From contig JAFYRT010000015.1 of NCBI GenBank assembly GCA_017546805.1, positions 1 through 62,267 of the forward strand: a stretch of 62,267 nt of DNA, given 5' to 3'. A program made the position numbers and the translations under genes. The stretch is from Muribaculaceae bacterium. GTDB taxonomy: Bacteria; Bacteroidota; Bacteroidia; Bacteroidales; G3-4614. Below are positions 4,659-61,601 of the stretch, one piece after another (position 1 is the stretch's first letter; each line of letters starts with the position of its first letter). The notes under the pieces were generated by a model that made no database searches, was not told the origin of the DNA, and was given only the letters and a program-made list of their open reading frames with translations.

Positions 4659-4950
4659 TTAATAGTTGTTAGTTTTTAGTTGTTAGTTGTCAGCAAACGA
4701 CTTTAATGACACTAAATACCTAATACAAGTAACACTCTCAGATAATAGATTGAACCTTTTGTTAAGCAAAAAAATATTAATACTTTTGCAATAACAAGAA
4801 TATACAAATTATGAATTAATTACTAATTACTAATTTCTAATTGTGGCTTTAGTCACGAACTAATTAATATAGATTGCCTATGAAACATTAGCGTATAGTT
4901 GATACGCACATCTTGAACATATTGGAAAAAGCGTTTTAGCTTTATTCTTT

Positions 4951-5099
4951 CTCTTGCGAAAGTTTGGCGACTTAAAGACAACCTGAAAGAATAACGATAA
5001 AATGCTCACGTTTATACGTGGGCTTTTAGTTATTTGCAGGTTAGGGTTACGCCAAACACCCCGCGAGAGCAGATATGCTAAAAGTTCCGCGTTTTTTTT
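4951..5099 (+). promoter_or_regulatory. structured leader / attenuator-like element, copy 1
   Basis: Nested pairings CTCTTGCG/CGCGAGAG, GTTTGGCG/CGCCAAAC, AACCTG/CAGGTT, AATAAC/GTTATT, GCTCACG/CGTGGGC, then a segment complementary to the tip followed by a T tract. Confidence 0.65.
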
Positions 5100-5159
5100 G
5101 TGTGCGCATTTGAACATTATATTTAAGGAACTATAGATAATAATATAACAACAATAATT

Positions 5160-5663
5160 ATGCAAAAAAAATACACGAAACACATTTTGATGATGTTGTT
5201 GGTATTCATACCATTTATAGGCATTAAAGCCACTGACTATATGAATGTCTATCTTACATCGCAAGGCTCATTTCAATCTATCAATATAGATGAAATAGAC
5301 AAAATCACCTTCCCCTCTGAAGATGAAGTAAACATCACCATATCGGGTATGGCAACCCCAATGGCAATAGATAATATCGAAGTCATCACCTTTGGCAATA
5401 CCAATATCACCGCCATAGAGGAGAGTGAAGCCAAAGTTGCCGAAATAGATATAACCTACTTAAAAGAAAGCGGTGAGATAAAAGTAACCACACCCGAGGC
5501 AATCAATCTTGTACACCTATACAATATGCAAGGAGTATTGATGCAAACACAAGCACCAAATACCACAGTTGCAACACTCAATGTAGGCGGCTGTCCAAGT
5601 GGAATATATATAGTAGCAGTACAATCAAACGGAAAAACAGAGATAAAGAAGATTATAAAATAG
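5160..5663 (+). CDS. small secreted protein with T9SS C-terminal sorting domain
   Basis: Signal peptide, two I-D-x-I-x-x-I-T-F repeats, C-terminal LYNMQG...GIYIVAV...KKIIK typical of type A CTD. Confidence 0.8.
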   Translation: MQKKYTKHILMMLLVFIPFIGIKATDYMNVYLTSQGSFQSINIDEIDKITFPSEDEVNITISGMATPMAIDNIEVITFGNTNITAIEESEAKVAEIDITYLKESGEIKVTTPEAINLVHLYNMQGVLMQTQAPNTTVATLNVGGCPSGIYIVAVQSNGKTEIKKIIK

Positions 5664-5750
5664 TTGAGGAACATTCGTTCCTCGAACCCGCTATCGTTCG
5701 GCATAATTTAATAAACTAAACTATGCTCTCACTTAATTGCGGCTTTGTTA
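5662..5750 (+). repeat. intergenic hairpin repeat family A
   Basis: AGTTGAGGAACATTCGTTCCTCGAACC is identical to 6667-6693 and is followed by the family core ...CGG-stem-AATAAA-stem-CTCTCRCTTA. Confidence 0.7.
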
Positions 5751-5871
5751 GTTTTTAGTTGTACGGTACTTCGTACCTTAGTTTTTAGCAAATAAAGACT
5801 CTAACAACTAACAACTACCCGCAGGGCGGCAGAGTTTTGCGATGCCGACAACAAACAACTCAAAAAAAAGA

Positions 5872-6645
5872 ATGATGAAAACAAGACTAATCACATTGCT
5901 AATAGCAATAACAACTATAATAGGTAGTGCTTATGCACAAAAGAAAATAGAAGTATATAAAAATGGAGAAGTAGTATATAGTGAATATATTACAGATATA
6001 GATAGTATAAAATTTAAAGAGCAAACAGCGCCTCTGCCCAATACCGAAAACGGACACGAATATGTTGATCTTGGATTGCCTTCAGGAATTAAATGGGCAA
6101 CCTGTAATGTGGGAGCAAATTCACCCGAGGAGTATGGCGATTACTTTGCATGGGGCGAAACCGAGCCAAAAGATTATTATTCTTGGAGTACCTACAAATA
6201 TTGTAATGGTTCATATGATACAATAACCAAATATTGTACAAATTCAAAATATGGCACAGTAGATAATAAAACAACCCTTGAACTCTCAGACGATGCTGCT
6301 CGTGTAAATTGGGGAGGCAGTTGGCGCATGCCAACAAGAGCAGAACAAGATGAATTAGAAAATACCTCAAATTGTACATGGATATGGACCACACAAAACG
6401 GAGTAAAAGGATATAAGGTAACAAGCGTAAAGAACGGTAACTCCATATTTCTTCCTGCGGCGGGCCTTCTCGGCGGCGACGATCTCGACGTTGCAGGCGA
6501 CCTCGGCCGCTTCTGGTTGAATTCGCTCGACCCGACCCCGAACCGCTGCTACAACGCCTCCAACATGGCCTTCAATTCGTTCAACGCGTCCGGGACCTAC
6601 GAATACCGTTACTACAGGCGGTCTGTCCGCGCAGTCTGCGAGTAG
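5872..6645 (+). CDS. exported protein with C-terminal CLec-fold (DUF1566/Fib_succ_major-like) domain; putative DGR target 1
   Basis: Start probably at MMKTR (ORF track starts at 5842); signal peptide; HEYVDLGLPSGIKWATCNVGA...GDYFAWGE...WRMPT...IFLPAAG...SVRAVCE; GC-rich 3' end. Confidence 0.85.
   Translation: MMKTRLITLLIAITTIIGSAYAQKKIEVYKNGEVVYSEYITDIDSIKFKEQTAPLPNTENGHEYVDLGLPSGIKWATCNVGANSPEEYGDYFAWGETEPKDYYSWSTYKYCNGSYDTITKYCTNSKYGTVDNKTTLELSDDAARVNWGGSWRMPTRAEQDELENTSNCTWIWTTQNGVKGYKVTSVKNGNSIFLPAAGLLGGDDLDVAGDLGRFWLNSLDPTPNRCYNASNMAFNSFNASGTYEYRYYRRSVRAVCE
6466..6645 (+). other. DGR variable region VR1 with IMH-like 3' end
   Basis: Abrupt GC-rich shift, NNC/NNT codons, and differences from the paralog at 61428-61601 concentrated in codon positions 1-2. 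Confidence 0.8.
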
Positions 6646-6666
6646 AAATTAAACATGTTTAATTTC

Positions 6667-6757
6667 AGTTGAGGAACATTCGTTCCTCGAACCTGCTCAT
6701 GCTCGGTAGTGCTTAAATAAATTTATCATTACTCTCGCTTATTCGCAGATTTGTTAG
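6667..6757 (+). repeat. intergenic hairpin repeat family A
   Basis: Homologous to 5662-5750 and 38825-38885; preceded by a perfect 22-bp palindrome at 6645-6666. Confidence 0.7.
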
Positions 6758-6890
6758 TTGAACGAGGGTGATTCTTTTGATACTTTTGTGTCATACTTAT
6801 TAGCCTAAATGCTCTAATAAGACCTAATGACTCAATTGACCTTATAATCCTGATTGTCTTCTTAAAAGATAATTTTATATGATAATACAC

Positions 6891-42020: not shown

Positions 42021-42055
42021 AAGAGAGCCTCGCTTAATAGCAAGGCTCTCTTTTT
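42021..42055 (+). terminator. rpmE2 terminator
   Basis: AAGAGAGCCT-loop-AGGCTCTCTTTTT. Confidence 0.8.
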
Positions 42056-42077
42056 GTTTGTATGCCTTTATTATAAA

Positions 42078-42186
42078 AGGCAATCTACGTTGTTATTATC
42101 AATATTCTACCTCAGTCACGTACTTTTGTGTACGCTCCTTTCGATCTAAATCTCAAAGCCTTGTATCTTACAAATTCTAACAACCC
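42078..42186 (+). repeat. structured intergenic repeat family B
   Basis: CTCAGTCACGTAC-loop-GTACGCTCCTTTCG...GCCTTGTA; reverse-complement homolog at 57634-57745. Confidence 0.65.
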
Positions 42187-42392
42187 TTATCAACGCACAT
42201 ATATAATTAGCAATCTGCTTTGGGGACAATAAAAAATTAGACCAATTAGTCAATTGGGCATTATAAGGATGCGAACCAAAAATCACCTTTTAGCCCTTCT
42301 CTTGGGCGTAGGAGATTAATTGCTAAATTTATAATCTATTAGAAGTTTGTTATATATTTTAGAAAGAAAGGAATACAATAAGAAAAAATATT

Positions 42393-42400
42393 TATCTTTG
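42393..42400 (+). promoter_or_regulatory. -7 promoter element upstream of leader copy 2
   Basis: TATCTTTG. Confidence 0.55.
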
Positions 42401-42456
42401 TAATGGTGAATTGAAATAATTCATCAATTTTTGAGAAATAGTAGCGTTATGCTCTC

Positions 42457-42608
42457 TTGTTAATGAAAACCTAGGAAATTTTCAAAAGTACAAAGAAGGC
42501 ATGATGGTTTCACGTGTATTCACGTGGACTGTTATATCCATATTTGTACTTTGGGTTTTCCTAGGACCTTCATTAGCAATGTGGAATAAATAGTCCACGT
42601 TTCTTTTT
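42457..42608 (+). promoter_or_regulatory. structured leader / attenuator-like element, copy 2
   Basis: TTGTTAATGAA/TTCATTAGCAA, CCTAGGAAA/TTTCCTAGG, AAAGTACAAA/TTTGTACTTT, TCACG/CGTGG; terminator ATGTGGA/TCCACGT plus T tract. Confidence 0.7.
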
Positions 42609-42647
42609 ATAAATTTTTCAGTTTTTAATTTCTAAAAATTATTTATT

Positions 42648-45233
42648 ATGGCAAGAGAAAATGTGCCTATAAAAGTAGGAATCCTTGATTTATTAGGTGG
42701 TGTTAATGGTGCACAATTTGTAATACCTGCATATCAAAGGAATTATACATGGACGGCAAAGAAAGAAGTTCATCAATTGCTTTATGATTTATTGGCAGTG
42801 TTGACCAAAGAACGTTCTAAACATTTTGTTGGAATAATGATTTATCTTGAAAAATCAATTACTCCGTTTCATTGGGAACGTTCTGTTATTGATGGACAGC
42901 AGCGTTTAACAACTATCTTTTTAACTCTATATGCGGTAAAGGAATTAATGATTGAAAAGGGGATAGCTTTAGATGCAGAAAAGTTAGAGAATCAATATTT
43001 GATAAATCCTTATGATGAGGTTAGTAAATTTAAACTGAAACCCTTGGTCTCTGACGATGAAGTATATCAGCATATAGTAAAAAGAGATTTTGTTAACATA
43101 AAAAATAGGAATTCTAATGTATATAAGAATTTTATCTATATAAAAGACGTGTTAAGAGATGTTTCAGAGAAATATTCTTTTAATGATATTCTTAGAGCTT
43201 TAAATAATTTGTATATAGTATGTGTTCCGATAGGAGAGGATGATTATCCTCAAAAAATATTTGAGAGTATTAATGCTACAGGAATAAAGCTTACAGCTTC
43301 AGATCTTATTCGTAATTTCCTTTTGATGCCTATTGTTAGCGATAAGCAAGATGAATATTACGAAAAATATTGGAAGCAAATTGAAGAACTTGTTGATTAT
43401 GATGCAAAAAAATTAGAAGCATTCTTTCGCTTTTTTATAATGGCAAAAAAAAGAAGTCTTGTTAATAAAAATGCAGTTTATCAACAATTTACAAAATGGT
43501 ATGATGAATATATTATAAATGTTGATATAGAAGACGTCTTTATTGAAATAGTAAATTATGCTAAGTGCTATAATTATTTATATAAAGCTCCGATAGATAA
43601 ACTAGACAAAGATTTAAGAGAATCCATTTTTGAGTTTAGACTTAACTTATCTGATATGCCAGCTCCATTATTAATGGAATTGTATTCAATACATTTATAC
43701 CATTGTGATAACAATGAAAATGAGTTGTCTGCAAAACAATTGTCAGAAATTATTACAATTTTGAATTCATATTTGATGCGTCGCTCTTTGTGTGGTATGG
43801 ATACTAGTGATATATCAAATTATTTCCCTGAATTATTAAGAAGTTTGCTAAATTTCTGCAATGCAGATTATTCTGACATTGTTGAAACTTTTAAACGTTT
43901 CTTGGTAGATAATAATCGCTCTAATGCAAGAGAAATGCCAGATGATAAACGCTTAGTAGAGCGAATAAAGCATGCGAATATGTATAGGTTAAGACAGTGG
44001 GTGAATATATTTTTTCGTAAGTTAGAATCAGATGGAAATCCTGCTCCAGTAGATTTTTCCGCTTTGAGTATTGAGCATTTAATGCCTCAGACACCAACTA
44101 AGTTATGGATGGTAAGCTTGGAGTGTGATGAAGATTCTTATGAGTCAAATGTTAATAGATTAGGGAATTTAACATTAGCTGCGAAATCTGATAATAGTAG
44201 GATGAGTAATAATGTTTGGGAGTATAAGAATAAAATTCTTGCATCAACAAACCATCTAAAGATGAATTCAACTCTATTAGCATGTGATAGATGGAAATTA
44301 GAAAATATAGAGAATAGAACAGATGAACTAATAAAAGAAATTGCTCGTTTGTATCCGTATTACAGCAGTAAGGCAGGTTTTAAAACTTTTCCGTCAAAGA
44401 AAATAGATAGACTCAAAATTTTTATAGAAGATTATGGAATTAAGGCCTCGGCATATTACTATCCTGAGACAGATGCGGTTGAAGTTAAAGCTGGATCTAT
44501 ATTGAGAAATGTAAATGAAGAAGATGATTTTGCAAAACTTTTATCTCCTTTTAGGGAAATGTTACTAAAAAATGGGAGACTCCATAAGGAAAATGATAAG
44601 TTGGTGTTTGCTCAAAATTATCTTTTTGAAAAAGAAGGCTTGGGAATGTCTGCGACTATAATACTCTCTGAATATATTAAGGATCCTGAAATTATTTGGC
44701 ATTTGGCAAATGGATCAACATTGAAAGAATGGAAAGATGCTAGGAGTAATGAATCAATCGAAACTGTTGAAGAAAATTTTGCAGAAAGTGATAGTATAGA
44801 TATTATTTTAAATCATAAGGTAGGAAGTAGATTATTGTTGCAAACGAAAAAAGTTGATTGGTCTTTAATGACAAGTTCTATAACATTATCGAATGAATGT
44901 AGAGAAAAAATTCAAAGTAATGGTGATTGGCGAATGAAAATAAATGAGCGGCGTAACGTGAAAATAATAATAAATGATGAATATTTTGATTCATATATGC
45001 ACTATTATAATTATGATGGTCGTCCTAATCCTGTAATGCAAATAAGATACCCTGGTAGAAAAAGTTTAATTGTTAGTAGGCTTAAAGATATATGCTCTGA
45101 AAAGTATTATGATTTGGAACAAAAACGCTTAAGCGAGGAAAATGGAATAATATATAAAGAGACATCAGGAGATAGATATGTCCATATTTATATGACGGAA
45201 AAACCAAATGTGATTAGGTTTGTTTTTAAGTAA
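42648..45233 (+). CDS. GmrSD-like type IV restriction protein (DUF262 + DUF1524 HNH) with extra C-terminal domains
   Basis: IPAYQRNYTW, IDGQQRLTT, FESINATG, SIEHLMPQ, LGNLTL...N; AT-rich. Confidence 0.85.
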   Translation: MARENVPIKVGILDLLGGVNGAQFVIPAYQRNYTWTAKKEVHQLLYDLLAVLTKERSKHFVGIMIYLEKSITPFHWERSVIDGQQRLTTIFLTLYAVKELMIEKGIALDAEKLENQYLINPYDEVSKFKLKPLVSDDEVYQHIVKRDFVNIKNRNSNVYKNFIYIKDVLRDVSEKYSFNDILRALNNLYIVCVPIGEDDYPQKIFESINATGIKLTASDLIRNFLLMPIVSDKQDEYYEKYWKQIEELVDYDAKKLEAFFRFFIMAKKRSLVNKNAVYQQFTKWYDEYIINVDIEDVFIEIVNYAKCYNYLYKAPIDKLDKDLRESIFEFRLNLSDMPAPLLMELYSIHLYHCDNNENELSAKQLSEIITILNSYLMRRSLCGMDTSDISNYFPELLRSLLNFCNADYSDIVETFKRFLVDNNRSNAREMPDDKRLVERIKHANMYRLRQWVNIFFRKLESDGNPAPVDFSALSIEHLMPQTPTKLWMVSLECDEDSYESNVNRLGNLTLAAKSDNSRMSNNVWEYKNKILASTNHLKMNSTLLACDRWKLENIENRTDELIKEIARLYPYYSSKAGFKTFPSKKIDRLKIFIEDYGIKASAYYYPETDAVEVKAGSILRNVNEEDDFAKLLSPFREMLLKNGRLHKENDKLVFAQNYLFEKEGLGMSATIILSEYIKDPEIIWHLANGSTLKEWKDARSNESIETVEENFAESDSIDIILNHKVGSRLLLQTKKVDWSLMTSSITLSNECREKIQSNGDWRMKINERRNVKIIINDEYFDSYMHYYNYDGRPNPVMQIRYPGRKSLIVSRLKDICSEKYYDLEQKRLSEENGIIYKETSGDRYVHIYMTEKPNVIRFVFK

Positions 45234-45266
45234 TTTTTTCAGAAAATTACCATTAATCGATTATAC

Positions 45267-45304
45267 AAATAGCCCCAAAGTTTGTAAAAGCTTTGGGGCT
45301 ATTT
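45267..45304. terminator. bidirectional terminator
   Basis: AAATAGCCCCAAAG-loop-CTTTGGGGCTATTT. Confidence 0.8.
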
Positions 45305-45319
45305 CTTGGGGATAGGAGA

Positions 45320-57745: not shown

Positions 57746-57988
57746 GACACATCGCCTTGTTTCTATAATTTTTGTAAAAAATATTTCACTGTAAATCAAT
57801 CTTTTAATTTTCGAAATAAAATAGAATGTTGTACTATTAAAAAAAAATGTTCAATTTTGTATAAATAAAGTTCTAATATTAAAGTATATAAGAAAAATAG
57901 CAAACAAAGAGTATACAAGAAAATAAAACAATATAAAAACACTAAAATAACTATTTGTTAAATAAAGCATTAGCTAACTATTCGGTAT

Positions 57989-58137
57989 CATCCTAAAACC
58001 TGAGAAATTTTAGAAAAAACAATACCTCGAATAAGTCGGTAAAATGCTCACGTATCTATACGTGGGCTTGGCTTATCCGGTATTGTGGGCAATCTCAGGG
58101 CCTAAGGATGTGGATAATGTCAAGTCCACATTTTTTT
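57989..58137 (+). promoter_or_regulatory. structured leader / attenuator-like element, copy 3
   Basis: CATCCT/AGGATG, CCTGAGA/TCTCAGG, ACAATACC/GGTATTGT, GCTCACGTA/TACGTGGGC; terminator ATGTGGA/TCCACAT plus T tract. Confidence 0.7.
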
Positions 58138-58190
58138 GTCCTAAGTAACCCATAATAGAGTAGGAGAGTCAATGCAAAAACACGTAAGAT

Positions 58191-58403
58191 ATGGAGCAAA
58201 TACACATTGGCTCAATAATTCGTTGCGAGTTACGCAAACAGAATAGGAGTAATCGCTGGTTGGCAGATCAAATTGGGGTGATACCACGCACCATAAACAA
58301 AATATTCTTGAAGCAAGATATGGATACGACACAACTCTTTCGTATCTCGAAAGCGATGCAAGTTGATTTCTTTTCATATTACTCAAAAGAGTTAAAAAAA
58401 TAA
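58191..58403 (+). CDS. small XRE-family helix-turn-helix protein
   Basis: IHIGSII...WLADQIG...INKIF...ISKAMQVDFF. Confidence 0.8.
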   Translation: MEQIHIGSIIRCELRKQNRSNRWLADQIGVIPRTINKIFLKQDMDTTQLFRISKAMQVDFFSYYSKELKK

Positions 58404-58539: not shown

Positions 58540-59172
58540 ATGAAAAATAAAATCAAAGAAGTATTGGAAAACTTAAAATTGAAACGTAAAGCATTCTGTT
58601 CAGAAGCAGATTTTCAGTTTGAGTTTGCCTGGGAATTACAAAAAAAATTACCTAAAGCAAAAATCAGATTAGAACGTCCAATATTAATAAATAAAGTTTA
58701 TTATATAGATATTTGGCTAATATATGAAAATAAATATTACCCTATTGAATTAAAGTATAAAACGAGGTTGTCAACTATTATAGATAATGGAGAGGAGATA
58801 GAGTTGGCTAATCATGCGGCAGTAGATTTAGGTTGTTATGCCTATATAAAAGATATTGTTCGTATTGAAGAAATTAAAAACAACATGGGCGAGGAAAAAT
58901 TTGGTGGAGGATTTGCAATAATGCTTACAAATGAACCATTATATTATAGGGATACAAAAAGAAATTCATCATATCAGCAATTTAAAATCTTTGAAAATAG
59001 GGAGATAACGGGTAACCTTTCATGGGGCAAAACACAAACAGGAAATGAATTTGCATTGAAGAAGAAGTTTCCACCTTTAAATCTTAAAGATAAATATAAA
59101 ATATCATGGTTCGACTATTCTATTGTTAATAACAGTCCAAATTTCAAATATACAATAACACACATAAAATAA
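58540..59172 (+). CDS. hypothetical protein with PD-(D/E)XK nuclease-like motifs
   Basis: SEADFQ, LE, IDIW, IELKYK; very AT-rich. Confidence 0.65.
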   Translation: MKNKIKEVLENLKLKRKAFCSEADFQFEFAWELQKKLPKAKIRLERPILINKVYYIDIWLIYENKYYPIELKYKTRLSTIIDNGEEIELANHAAVDLGCYAYIKDIVRIEEIKNNMGEEKFGGGFAIMLTNEPLYYRDTKRNSSYQQFKIFENREITGNLSWGKTQTGNEFALKKKFPPLNLKDKYKISWFDYSIVNNSPNFKYTITHIK

Positions 59173-59174
59173 TT

Positions 59175-61601
59175 ATGAAACACAAACACTTATTAAAAAG
59201 CATACTGTCAGTAATGCTGATAACATTAACTACAGTAATATCAATATTTATAACCTCATGTGCCGAGGAGGAAGAAAACAAATCAAATACAACCCCATCT
59301 GTGTGCAAAGTCTCAGTAATTAGCGGAGAGGGCGGAACAGCAAAAACATCTGAAACAGAATTAATACCCGGTTGGGAGGTAACCATAACCGCAACACCCG
59401 AAGAGACCTACCGTTTTGTAAACTGGACAGTAGGCGGGAAAGAGGTATCAAAAGAAAACCCATATACAATAGCGATAAACCAAAATACACAATTTAAAGC
59501 CAATTTTGAGAAAGATAACTACACCCTCAAAGTAACCGCGGGCGAGGGAGGTGTTGTAAAAGCATCACAAGAGGGCATTGTGTTAAACGGAACAAAAGTC
59601 ACTCTTACTGCTACTCCAAAAGAAGGCTATGGTTTTGTAAATTGGACAGTAAACGGAGAAGAGGTATCAAAAGAAAACCCCTACACAGTAACAATAACAA
59701 ACGACATAGAGTATGTCGCCAACTTCATAACCCATAAAGTAACCGTAATAGCAGGTGAAGGCGGTACAGCCGAAACATCAAAAACACAAGCAGGACATAA
59801 CGAACAAGTAACCCTTACAGCCACTCCCAATGATGGCTACAGCTTTGTCAATTGGACAGTAAACGGAGAAGAAGTATCAAAAGAAAACCCCTACACAGTA
59901 ACCGTAACAAAAGATGTAGAGTATATTGCTAACTTCATAACCCATAAAGTAACTGTAATAGCAGGTGAAGGTGGTACAGCCACAGTCTCAAAAACACAAG
60001 CAGGACATAATGAACAAGTCACTCTTACTGCTACTCCCAACGAAGGCTATAGTTTTGTAAATTGGACAGTAAACGGCGAGGAGGTATCTACATCTGCAAC
60101 ATACACAGTAACCGTAACAAAAGATGTAGAGTATGTCGCTAATTTTATCAGTTATAAAGTAACAGTATTGTCAGGCGAAGGTGGAACAGCCACAGCAAAT
60201 AAAACACAAGTAGGATATAACGGGCAAGTCACCCTCACTGCCACACCCAACGACGGTTATGGTTTTGTTAATTGGACAGTCAACGGAGAGGAAGTATCAA
60301 CCGCGAACCCATATACAGCGACAATAACAGCAAATACAGAGTTTAAAGCCAACTTTATCAGTTATAAAGTATCTGTAATAACAGGTGAGGGCGGAACGGC
60401 TACGGCAAATAAAACACAAGTATCCCCTAACGGACAAGTAACCCTCACCGCCATGCCAAAAGAAGGCTATAGCTTTGTCAATTGGATAGTGGACGGAGTT
60501 GAGGTTTCAAGACAAGCAACATACACCGCAACAATAACAGCAGATACAGAATTTAAAGCCAATTTTATCAGTTATAAAGTAACAGTATTGTCAGGCGAAG
60601 GCGGAACTGCTACAGCAAATAAAGCACAAGTAGGCTATAACGAACAAGTGACCCTCACCGCTACCCCTAACGATGGCTATAGCTTTGTCAATTGGACAGT
60701 AAACGGCGAGGAAGTATCAACATCTGCAACATATACCGCAACAATAACAGCAGATACAGAATTTAAAGCCAACTTTATTAGTTATAAAGTAACCGTAGTA
60801 TCAGGCGAAGGCGGAACCGCCAAAGTGGATAAAACGCAATTAGCACATAACGGACAAGTAACCCTCACCGCCACACCTGAAGAAGATTACTTCTTTGTCA
60901 ATTGGACAGTAAACGGAGAGGAGATATCAACATCTGCAACATATACCGCAACAATAACAGCAGATACAGAATTTAAAGCTAATTTTAGAGAAACATATAA
61001 ACCTACAGGATTAGAAAATGGAAAAGGTTTTGTAGAACTCGGTTTGCCAAGTGGACTAAAATGGGCAACATGCAATGTGGGAGCAACCACACCCGAAGGT
61101 TACGGCGATTACTTTGCTTGGGGCGAGACAGAACCAAAAGACTACTACGATTGGAGCACCTACAAATATTGTAATGGTTCTTCATCAACAATGACCAAAT
61201 ACTATACAAAATCAAGTTATGGCACAGTAGATAATAAAACCACCCTTGAACTCGCGGACGATGCCGCGCATGTAAATTGGGGAGGTAATTGGCGAATGCC
61301 AACAATTGAAGAACAAAAAGAGTTATTGAATAATTGCACTTGGACATGGACAACACAAAACGGAGTAAACGGGTGTAAAGTAACAAGTAAAAGGAACGGT
61401 AACTCCATTTTTCTTCCTGCTGCGGGCTATCGCTACGGCGACAATCTCGACAGTGCGGGCAGTTACGGCTACTACTGGTCGGGTTCGCTCGGCACGTACT
61501 ACAGCGACTACGCTTACCTCGTGTACTTCAGTTCGGACAGCGTAGGTTGGGAGTCCTACGACCGTTGCAGCGGGCAGTCTGTCCGCGCAGTATGCGAGTA
61601 G
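59175..61601 (+). CDS. surface lipoprotein: 8 InlB-B-like repeats plus C-terminal CLec-fold domain; putative DGR target 2
   Basis: Lipobox ITSC then acidic stretch; VTLTATP..GY.FVNWT repeats; C-terminal domain paralogous to 5872-6645. Confidence 0.88.
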   Translation: MKHKHLLKSILSVMLITLTTVISIFITSCAEEEENKSNTTPSVCKVSVISGEGGTAKTSETELIPGWEVTITATPEETYRFVNWTVGGKEVSKENPYTIAINQNTQFKANFEKDNYTLKVTAGEGGVVKASQEGIVLNGTKVTLTATPKEGYGFVNWTVNGEEVSKENPYTVTITNDIEYVANFITHKVTVIAGEGGTAETSKTQAGHNEQVTLTATPNDGYSFVNWTVNGEEVSKENPYTVTVTKDVEYIANFITHKVTVIAGEGGTATVSKTQAGHNEQVTLTATPNEGYSFVNWTVNGEEVSTSATYTVTVTKDVEYVANFISYKVTVLSGEGGTATANKTQVGYNGQVTLTATPNDGYGFVNWTVNGEEVSTANPYTATITANTEFKANFISYKVSVITGEGGTATANKTQVSPNGQVTLTAMPKEGYSFVNWIVDGVEVSRQATYTATITADTEFKANFISYKVTVLSGEGGTATANKAQVGYNEQVTLTATPNDGYSFVNWTVNGEEVSTSATYTATITADTEFKANFISYKVTVVSGEGGTAKVDKTQLAHNGQVTLTATPEEDYFFVNWTVNGEEISTSATYTATITADTEFKANFRETYKPTGLENGKGFVELGLPSGLKWATCNVGATTPEGYGDYFAWGETEPKDYYDWSTYKYCNGSSSTMTKYYTKSSYGTVDNKTTLELADDAAHVNWGGNWRMPTIEEQKELLNNCTWTWTTQNGVNGCKVTSKRNGNSIFLPAAGYRYGDNLDSAGSYGYYWSGSLGTYYSDYAYLVYFSSDSVGWESYDRCSGQSVRAVCE
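59300..60990 (+). repeat. intragenic tandem repeat, eight ~210-bp units
   Basis: Exact 210-nt period at 59731, 59941, 60151, 60361, 60571, 60781. Confidence 0.92.
61428..61601 (+). other. DGR variable region VR2 with IMH-like 3' end
   Basis: GC-rich, TAC/GAC/AGC/GGC codons, shared tail GTCTGTCCGCGCAGTmTGCGAGTAG. Confidence 0.8.

Follow-up and report, generated by a model that had tools for sequence, protein, structure and literature searches.

A 62,267-nucleotide stretch of a Muribaculaceae genome (contig JAFYRT010000015.1 of assembly GCA_017546805.1), referred to here as the window, carries three intergenic segments of low sequence identity located ahead of accessory genes. A first-pass annotation, made from the letters alone, took them to be copies of one unrecognised structured leader of about 150 nt. 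This raises the question of whether the three segments are one RNA element and, if so, what such an element would do in front of genes that share no common pathway. We found that the segments are copies of one large structured leader RNA family which is spread across the Bacteroidota.

All three segments lie on the + strand at the positions first given for them and each was observed to fold as a single long irregular hairpin. The minimum free energies of copies 1, 2 and 3 are -51.9, -59.4 and -52.2 kcal/mol, with z values of -3.98, -8.15 and -5.01 respectively, and no shuffled sequence folded as well (0/200 per copy), which bears out the claim of a common fold. Every part that had been described was located (Table 1), namely the basal stem P1, an internal loop in all three copies whose 5' strand is AAA and whose 3' strand is ACC or GCC, two more stems whose sequences are unlike between copies while their pairing is kept, and the apical TCACG-loop-CGTGG hairpin. 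The unit itself is longer than proposed, as the family measures ~175 nt and the model match of copy 1 begins 26 nt before P1. Within the copy 1 subfamily, conservation extends from ~4868 through the GGAAC motif near the start codon. A local hairpin just before the T run, reported for copies 2 and 3, was found in both; copy 1 and most relatives are without it. The basal helices P0a and P0b of copy 2 are poor, with 7/8 and 2/6 pairs formed. The distance to the start codon, given earlier as 40-60 nt, was measured as 60, 39 and 53 nt for copies 1, 2 and 3. When MAFFT was given no sequences but the three copies, the consensus fold was poor, and the structure became clear only after relatives were added.

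Table 1. Features of the three leader copies and of the genes that follow them. Positions are those of the window.
Feature	Positions	Strand	Basis or remark
Copy 1, full TAnnTTTG box TACTTTTG, farther upstream	4781-4788	+	read from sequence
Copy 1, imperfect Bacteroidota -7 box TAGATTG	4870-4876	+	read from sequence; paralogues have TAATTTTG/TAAATTTG at this place
Copy 1, subfamily-specific 5' segment	4880-4924	+	alignment of 30 copies
Copy 1, local hairpin GCGTAT/ATACGC in 5' segment	4891-4896/4902-4907	+	alignment of 30 copies
Copy 1, complementarity across the element, past the T run	4902-4911 vs 5100-5109		by eye and alifold output
Copy 1, core leader	4925-5099	+	model match, 164.9 bits
Copy 1, segment 1	4926-4948		
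Copy 1, P1	4951-4958/5062-5069		
Copy 1, internal loop AAA/ACCC	4959-4961/5058-5061		
Copy 1, P2	4962-4969/5050-5057		
Copy 1, P3	4980-4985/5037-5042		
Copy 1, P4	4989-4995/5029-5035		
Copy 1, apical hairpin	5004-5023		arm A 5004-5011, loop 5012-5015, arm B 5016-5023
Copy 1, segment C	5083-5091		
Copy 1, T run	5092-5099		
Copy 1, motif D GGAACT (pseudoknot partner)	5127-5132	+	pairs AGTTCC 5083-5088; 28 nt before start codon
Gene after copy 1	5160-5663	+	167-aa protein, signal-peptide-like N-terminus and T9SS C-terminal sorting domain (Pfam Por_Secre_tail 3e-07; NCBIfam TIGR04183 3.6e-11)
Copy 2, TAnnTTTG box TATCTTTG	42393-42400	+	31 nt upstream of model match
Copy 2, leader	42432-42608	+	79.6 bits
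Copy 2, P1	42459-42466/42570-42577		
Copy 2, P2	42470-42477/42558-42565		
Copy 2, P3	42487-42492/42545-42550		
Copy 2, apical hairpin	42509-42528		arms 42509-42516/42521-42528
Copy 2, local hairpin before T run	42578-42601		
Copy 2, segment C GTCCACG	42593-42599		
Copy 2, T-rich run	42600-42608		
Gene after copy 2	42648-45233	+	861-aa GmrSD-type restriction endonuclease (Pfam GmrSD_N 1.1e-29, GmrSD_C 8e-21)
Copy 3, leader	57961-58138	+	82.3 bits
Copy 3, P1	57988-57995/58104-58111		
Copy 3, P2	57999-58006/58092-58099		
Copy 3, P3	58021-58026/58079-58084		
Copy 3, P4	58030-58036/58071-58077		
Copy 3, apical hairpin	58046-58067		arm A 58046-58054, arm B 58059-58067
Copy 3, local hairpin before T run	58108-58114/58125-58131		
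Copy 3, complementarity	58119-58129 vs 58062-58072		
Copy 3, T run	58131-58137		
First ORF after copy 3	58191-58403	+	70 aa, no Pfam match at 1e-4
Next ORF after copy 3	58540-59172		210 aa
Following ORF after copy 3	59175-61601		808-aa repeat protein with Lcl_C domain

A BLAST search with copy 1 and its flanks against 41 relatives returned many copies per genome within the same genus and three further copies in the present genome. From 27 sequences (alignment A3, 176 positions and 60 pairs) we built a covariance model, which gave eight matches in this 2.1-Mb assembly; a ninth paralogue, at C25:21750-21892, was detected by BLAST only. The three segments first noticed are therefore all real members of the family and do not make up its full set. 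In the genus and family, 82 model matches were found in 11 of 12 genomes, and across the order matches were observed in 41/151 genomes, representing 39/148 genera, the highest number in one genome being 15. When genomes were sampled evenly over the phylum, 7/151 had matches at E<=1e-5. Furthermore, an exact pattern placed on the tip and the pre-T segment and searched in species-representative genomes returned at least 121 loci, and 79 of the 80 loci retrieved were full model matches. The pattern matches listed reach Bacteroidales, Flavobacteriales and Chitinophagales and include named Alistipes, Prevotella, Tannerella, Paludibacter, Dysgonomonas, Odoribacter, Flavobacterium, Tenacibaculum, Aquimarina and Ferruginibacter. 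Cultivable carriers among them are Alistipes putredinis DSM 17216 (L120), Flavobacterium soli DSM 19725 (L127), Dysgonomonas termitidis (L107) and Tenacibaculum aestuarii (L157). Also among the matches listed are three records with non-Bacteroidota MAG labels.

The description of the element as unrecognised stands, as no Rfam 15 family matched the whole window at the gathering score. Around copy 1 the Rfam 15 matches were at chance level alone (E 0.5-8), and for 20 loci of relatives none fell on the hairpin at E<=0.1. We did not find the element described in the literature, where the candidates of PMC8040213 were compared by description. The element is uncatalogued, rather than surely unpublished.

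Covariation within the family, which the first-pass annotation had put forward as a check, was found to be strong, with about 90% of alignment cells paired. In A3 the value is 90.6% versus 44-57% when the 3' partners were slid, none of 500 shuffles reached any of the measures, and both sides have changed in 32 of the 60 pairs. Both A4 and A5 are alignments fitted to the model, and A5 consists of 78 distinct sequences from other species that were picked by a pattern fixing the tip and segment C, leaving the variable stems free; here 90.4% of cells are paired versus 35-47% when slid, double changes occur in 48/60 pairs, and all four Watson-Crick types are present at most P1, P2 and P3 positions. 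We noticed that G·U pairs far exceed A·C combinations (479 vs 55, and 424 vs 76), which indicates that the sense strand is the folding one. The internal loops are conserved and have the consensus GAAA/ACC and AAUUU/GGGU.

Four segments of the element are conserved in sequence and these permit two folds. Segment 1 is the 5' end (AAAAAGCGUU..AGCUUUUAUUC), segment 2 comprises the 5' strand of P4 and tip arm A (GCUCACGC), segment 3 comprises tip arm B (GCGUGGGC) and the 3' strand of P4, and segment 4 reads ..AGUUCC(C)ACGC and is followed by the U run. In the rod fold, segments 2 and 3 pair at the tip and segments 1 and 4 pair at the base. Since segment 1 resembles segment 3 and segment 2 resembles segment 4, the pairings 1:2 and 3:4 can form instead, and this split fold and the rod fold are mutually exclusive. 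The complementarity of the pre-T segment (C) to the 3' arm of the tip (B) had already been pointed out for the three copies, and it was found to be above chance and to extend to the full alternative fold. Among 79 distinct copies, the B:C duplex averages -9.63 kcal/mol within copies and -7.18 kcal/mol between copies (0/2000 permutations), while the tip helix itself gives -10.05 within and -6.64 between copies in the same test. A few large sequence classes carry most of the B:C signal, so that few independent events lie behind it. The exclusive folds asserted in the first-pass annotation hold as regards the alternative pairings; the local terminator-like hairpin belongs to copies 2 and 3 and not to copy 1.

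The same approach was applied to whole segments. Pairing of 1:2 is stronger within a copy than across copies (-12.1 vs -9.38; 0/1000 permutations), as are 3:4 (-9.81 vs -7.54; 0/1000) and 2:3 (-14.7 vs -7.85; 0/1000), whereas the 1:4 duplex gave no copy-specific signal (-8.24 vs -8.06; 141/1000) and like-with-like segment controls were not significant in this own-versus-cross test. The two halves were also folded alone and compared with controls in which the rod was kept and the order of its pairs permuted. The sample was the three window copies and 57 random copies, one of which failed the rod filter, and in all 59 copies the halves beat the permuted rods (-19.0 vs -12.0 and -28.8 vs -18.2 kcal/mol). 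In the isolated 5' half, arm A pairs with the 5' end in 72/73 and 68/73 copies, and the 3' half folded alone has the final 6 nt ahead of the T run paired with arm B in 71/73 and 73/73 copies. When B:C was forced, nested folds lay 3.9 to 13.5 kcal/mol above the minimum. The rod is more stable than the split fold by ~12 kcal/mol on average and the split fold would therefore need a kinetic or factor-dependent route.

The surroundings of the element are those of a transcript leader. In most copies the Bacteroidota -7 promoter motif, TAnnTTTG, was observed 8-110 nt ahead of the point where the model starts, and in the copy 1 subfamily it lies directly before a conserved CCTATGAAAC box. A run of at least five T residues is present in 78/83 copies, and a same-strand ORF starts within 10-135 nt in 75/83 copies of A4 and 67/79 copies of A5. 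Inspection by eye showed no TAnnTTTG box from the T run to the ORF, and a promoter at that place was rejected on this ground. In many copies an ATGAAAC/ATGACATAA box provides an ATG and 1-5 codons; a leader peptide here was considered and dropped because the box directly follows the -7 box, and it is probably the transcription start region. A leader peptide starting from an ATG near the tip was likewise dropped as this ATG is not conserved (by eye).

The genes that follow the element are varied. A T9SS sorting domain was found in 10 of the 62 first downstream proteins that were scanned, and further types are BspA-type LRR, FGE-sulfatase, Fib_succ_major, collagen-like, OMP barrel, CsgG-like and LprI proteins. 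A minority are GmrSD, HSDR_N, ResIII helicase, N6 methylase, radical SAM/SPASM and MFS proteins, and many first downstream proteins have no Pfam match. By a crude signal-peptide rule, 58/75 and 52/67 of the downstream proteins look exported, compared with 408/1256 background ORFs. Among the 62 first ORFs no conserved partner gene adjoins the copies and no common pathway was seen. As had been noted for the window, the element was not seen ahead of housekeeping genes, with 0/8 model matches in this genome preceding a recognisable one. The three accessory loci do not form the whole set, as the family is genome-wide and phylum-wide, and the label of DGR-target loci was not supported, as no RVT_1 reverse transcriptase was found in this 96.6%-complete assembly. 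Co-regulation of the loci that carry the leader is something that we only infer.

A further interaction spans the T run. Here the 5' portion of segment 4, which reads AGUUCC, AGUCCC, AGUACC or a further variant, has its complement in a motif located at a median of 24 nt past the T run. This pseudoknot duplex is stronger within copies than across copies (-8.05 vs -6.02 kcal/mol; 0/2000 permutations) and reaches -6 kcal/mol or better in 121/158 copies. In A6, which holds 28 sequences chosen by a regular expression for the motif (A5 and A6 were both selected through sequence patterns), 92.8% of cells are paired, and the small hairpin that bears the motif in its loop shows double changes in 5/5 pairs. 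The partner is positioned fairly constantly at 21-30 nt before the start codon (by eye). Downstream of copy 2 the D motif was not seen, and none is visible downstream of copy 3. The pseudoknot can form only on RNA that extends past the T run and with segment 4 not paired to B. GGAAC also resembles an ECF-type -35 box, a reading that was rejected because the motif shows covariation with the segment ahead of the U run and is placed just 21-30 nt before the start codon.

We propose that the element is a cis-acting 5' leader that may act as a conditional transcription attenuator, and we give this reading an even chance. The element lies on the same strand between a TAnnTTTG box and an ORF, has a stable helix followed by a U run (with a local terminator-like site in copy 2), and its exclusive pairings 1:2, 3:4 and 2:3 have been kept in evolution. 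Position, T run and exclusive folds support the attenuation that the first-pass annotation had suggested; from them we infer termination in the split fold, passage of polymerase in the rod, and a cue, whether riboswitch-like or protein-controlled, that selects between them at the internal loops. Transcription would start from the Bacteroidota-type promoter 8 to 110 nt upstream. If segments 1 and 2 paired, and 3 with 4, a 7-bp GC-rich B:C helix would abut the U run and form a strong intrinsic terminator. If the rod formed instead, B would be locked in the tip, the hypervariable stems P1-P3 would zip up between, GCG/CGC alone would abut the U run and AGUUCC would be bulged. On read-through RNA this bulge would pair with the loop UUGGGACU of the small hairpin ~25 nt before the start codon and the rod would be fixed. 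A protein, a ligand or a kinetic cue acting at the conserved internal loops could choose the fold. These loops are formed in the rod only and would be the natural binding site of such a protein or ligand. Both folds set a helix beside the U run, so both might terminate, and the rod would be the 'on' state only on the reasoning given here. In copies 2 and 3 and some relatives, a second B-like arm before the T run forms an ordinary hairpin, which fits segment 4 and the T run serving as a terminator arm. A rod-shaped RNA is an atypical aptamer.

The arrangement resembles that of trp-type leaders and riboswitch platforms, in which a four-segment 5' leader is placed between promoter and ORF. As in classical attenuators, 1:2 and 3:4 pairing is set against 2:3 pairing, a U run follows the 3:4 helix, and the segments with dual pairing are conserved in sequence. 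The present element differs from these attenuators in having no conserved leader peptide (by eye, the ATG near the tip is not conserved), in that the alternative to the terminator is a ~60-bp rod that also closes 1:4 at its base, and in its hypervariable spacer stems between the segments and the pseudoknot that reaches over the U run.

The same features could belong to a post-transcriptional 5'-UTR element that protects against RNases, serves as an RNase III substrate or tunes translation initiation, with the U run being merely one strand of a closing A/U helix. Such an element would account for the 5' A run that is kept alongside the U run (73/83 copies have four or more A among their first 7 nt) and for two copies with a broken U run, L072 and L081, in which changes in the 5' strand, seen by eye, preserve the closing helix. 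The fairly constant spacing of the pseudoknot partner before the start codon and the enrichment of exported proteins downstream point the same way. It leaves unexplained, however, the copy-specific complementarity of the 1:2 and 3:4 pairings, the better keeping of the U run than of the A run, and the exchange of the basal helix for an ordinary hairpin with a T run in copies 2 and 3 and in relatives such as L043, and we consider it unlikely, with a modest chance of being right. It is improbable that the copies are small RNA genes in their own right, each made up of promoter, 170-nt RNA and terminator, with RNAs that act in trans and downstream genes that are unrelated or expressed through leakage. 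They do have their own promoter box and T run, and multicopy small RNA families are known in Bacteroides, FopS being an example (PMC11697453). Nevertheless, the nearby same-strand ORF has no visible promoter box of its own in front of it, and the covarying pairing past the U run forms on read-through RNA alone. Nearly all bases are paired so that a single-stranded seed is not visible, and apart from the ninth paralogue the stem arms of the eight copies match elsewhere in the genome at chance level.

An element acting at the level of DNA, such as an attC-like single-stranded recombination site (the alternative named in the first-pass annotation), a miniature inverted-repeat transposable element or an invertible promoter, was weighed against the same data together with a comparison of strain junctions. 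Integron attC sites share with the family a conserved fold with little sequence conservation, one favoured strand and adjoining accessory genes, and our copies stand ahead of accessory genes on islands. In the copy 1 subfamily the element is bounded by a 10-bp inverted repeat, and folding of single-stranded DNA would be equally in keeping with an excess of G·T. The island of copy 2, from ~42054/42098 to 45315, contains the leader and the GmrSD gene and is missing in three relatives; its left junction is just past the rpmE terminator and precedes the element by 335-380 nt. At the copy 1 locus, one relative (G009) retains the leader and first gene while another (G010), whose flanks lie on different contigs, appears to be without ~4675-6667, starting ~250 nt upstream of the element. 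At these two loci the presence/absence junctions thus lie upstream and after the gene, never inside the element, unlike in attC sites, and arrays are lacking: copies are dispersed singly with one tandem pair (L062). The attC boxes are RYYYAAC and GTTRRRY, and in copy 2 these were not seen by eye in the expected arrangement of 5' AAC and 3' GTT. Relative to the conserved flanks, the 30 subfamily copies are all oriented alike, which rejects an inverton, and 75/83 copies point at an ORF. Palindromic repeats of the ERIC/Correia type are alike in sequence between copies, are inserted in either orientation and fold in transcripts. The present element is likewise a multicopy imperfect palindrome transcribed with neighbouring genes; here the stems diverge by compensatory changes, to a depth unlike that of transposable repeats, and orientation to the gene is fixed, so that a miniature inverted-repeat or ERIC-like origin was rejected. 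The pattern matched only five times among 2.9 million viral contigs and a phage origin was rejected on this basis. A promoter box, a U run and a pseudoknot with the pre-start hairpin are what a transcript would have, and the copies lie 5' of ORFs. Together these results disfavour the attC-like alternative, and we regard a DNA-level element of any kind as very improbable.

Returning to the attenuator, a functional parallel may be drawn with the UpxY/NusG-like antitermination at Bacteroides capsule loci, in which termination within the leader depends on a protein. In both cases a Bacteroidota 5' leader precedes genes for surface structures and leader termination would set expression. They differ in that a NusG-like domain was found in 0/62 of the first ORFs downstream of the present leaders, and the two are not known to have an RNA architecture in common.

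Among described Bacteroidota RNAs, FopS and GibS are alike in being multicopy, with their own promoters and terminator-like 3' ends. FopS is described as a single-stranded 5' stretch and a terminator hairpin, with an Rfam entry (PMC11697453). By contrast, our element forms a 175-nt rod in which almost every base is paired, has no Rfam match and was not assigned to that family on either count. Fremin and Bhatt 2021 (PMC8040213) list 3,161 candidates, among them the unnamed HMP2_1881 and HMP2_4205, which are structured or palindromic Bacteroidetes intergenic regions of 108-132 bp with 2-3 covarying bases reported. HMP2_1881 is located near radical SAM genes and was expressed in 13/13 instances (PMC8040213), and one copy in this genome similarly precedes a radical SAM/SPASM gene. 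Set beside the present element by description only, these candidates are shorter, and as far as that source describes them they might overlap it. The transcriptome of Flavobacterium psychrophilum contains many structured 5' regions without Rfam hits, and in the portion of that report at hand none is named like the present element (PMC9723704).

With ~175 nt, up to 15 copies per genome and 39/148 sampled genera of one order, the family would rank among the larger cis-regulatory RNA families outside Rfam; it covaries as strongly as accepted riboswitches do, and its design includes two competing folds. Bacteroidota dominate gut, oral, rumen, soil and marine communities, and control after initiation of their surface, T9SS-secreted and defence genes is poorly known. 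The four segments, the U run and the pseudoknot provide a testable handle on this control and point to a signal or factor that could link many accessory genes. It is possible, rather than probable, that the family is a phylum-wide class of signal-responsive leaders, either a riboswitch or a dedicated protein-binding switch, whose internal loops would read one cellular signal and jointly set the expression of dozens of unrelated exported, cell-surface and anti-phage genes per genome. Such a class would amount to a hidden regulon for outward-facing accessory proteins. Genome annotation would gain from the element, as it marks promoters and 5' ends, and it may be of use as a regulatory part for Bacteroidota engineering.

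In addition to the core folds, the complementarity across the element listed for copy 1 (Table 1) joins its subfamily-specific 5' segment to residues past the T run. In one copy (L028) both sides of a pairing of this type were observed to be altered.

A small conserved module was found between the leader's D motif, the pseudoknot partner beyond the T run, and the start codon in about twelve relatives. At two of the leader loci, L017 and L034, this module matches the Rfam family DUF805b (RF02914) with scores of 33.5 and 28.2 bits (E 6e-06 and 3.8e-04), both slightly below the gathering score of 35.6 bits. The leader can thus occur together with a second candidate cis-regulatory RNA.

Additional complementarity was observed in the copy-1 subfamily, where an upstream ATACGCACAT is complementary to (A/G)TGTGCG(T/C)AT directly past the T run. 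The same ATACGCACAT could instead pair with GCGTAT to form a local upstream hairpin, and this alternative may constitute an additional genus-specific switch layer. Copy 1 and its subfamily also carry a T-rich stretch directly 3' of the tip hairpin. A simple scan scores the two together as terminator-like, a feature that has no counterpart in most other leader subfamilies.

Coordinates of features in and around the leader copies
Feature	Coordinates	Remark
Module adjoining leader	L017:1239-1274; L034:1704-1738	D motif-to-start-codon interval; DUF805b match
Complementary stretches, copy 1	window 4891-4911 and 5100-5109	flank leader core
Tip hairpin and T-rich stretch	window 5004-5033	terminator-like
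18-nt hairpin	window 5666-5683; 6671-6688	conserved flanks
Multicopy intergenic stretches	window ~5745-5815; ~6665-6760; ~6967-7061	copies in G009, G010
GmrSD island	window ~42054-45315
115-nt repeat	window 42073-42189	left part of island
Tandem leaders	L062:401-569; L062:1526-1694	contig C66 of G095
Ninth leader copy	C25:21750-21892	source assembly G000

The tandem leaders, found in a relative's genome, lie 1.1 kb apart and each has a paralogous small exported protein 3' of it. The ninth copy in the source assembly is 87% identical to the copy on contig C16 across 144 nt and was not detected by the covariance model search of that assembly at E<=1. Among the matches listed, three leader pattern matches (L124, L147 and L150) come from MAGs that carry the labels Paenibacillus, Falkowbacteria and Pseudomonadales, and these matches may reflect binning contamination or transfer.

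Besides the GmrSD gene and the leader in front of it, the GmrSD island takes in about 370 nt of DNA further upstream. The terminator of rpmE borders the island on one side and the end of clpB on the other. Three relatives' genomes (G008, G009 and G010) lack the island, and the repeat forming its left part occurs in three copies in G009.

The first-pass annotation had labelled the Lcl_C and T9SS-tail genes as DGR targets. No RVT_1 reverse transcriptase was found across the source assembly, which is 96.6% complete, and the label therefore has no accompanying retroelement there. An identical 18-nt hairpin, GAGGAAC-ATTC-GTTCCTC, lies 3' of both genes that follow copy 1 (chance expectation 0), and the short intergenic stretches near it are present in dozens of copies in two relatives' genomes.
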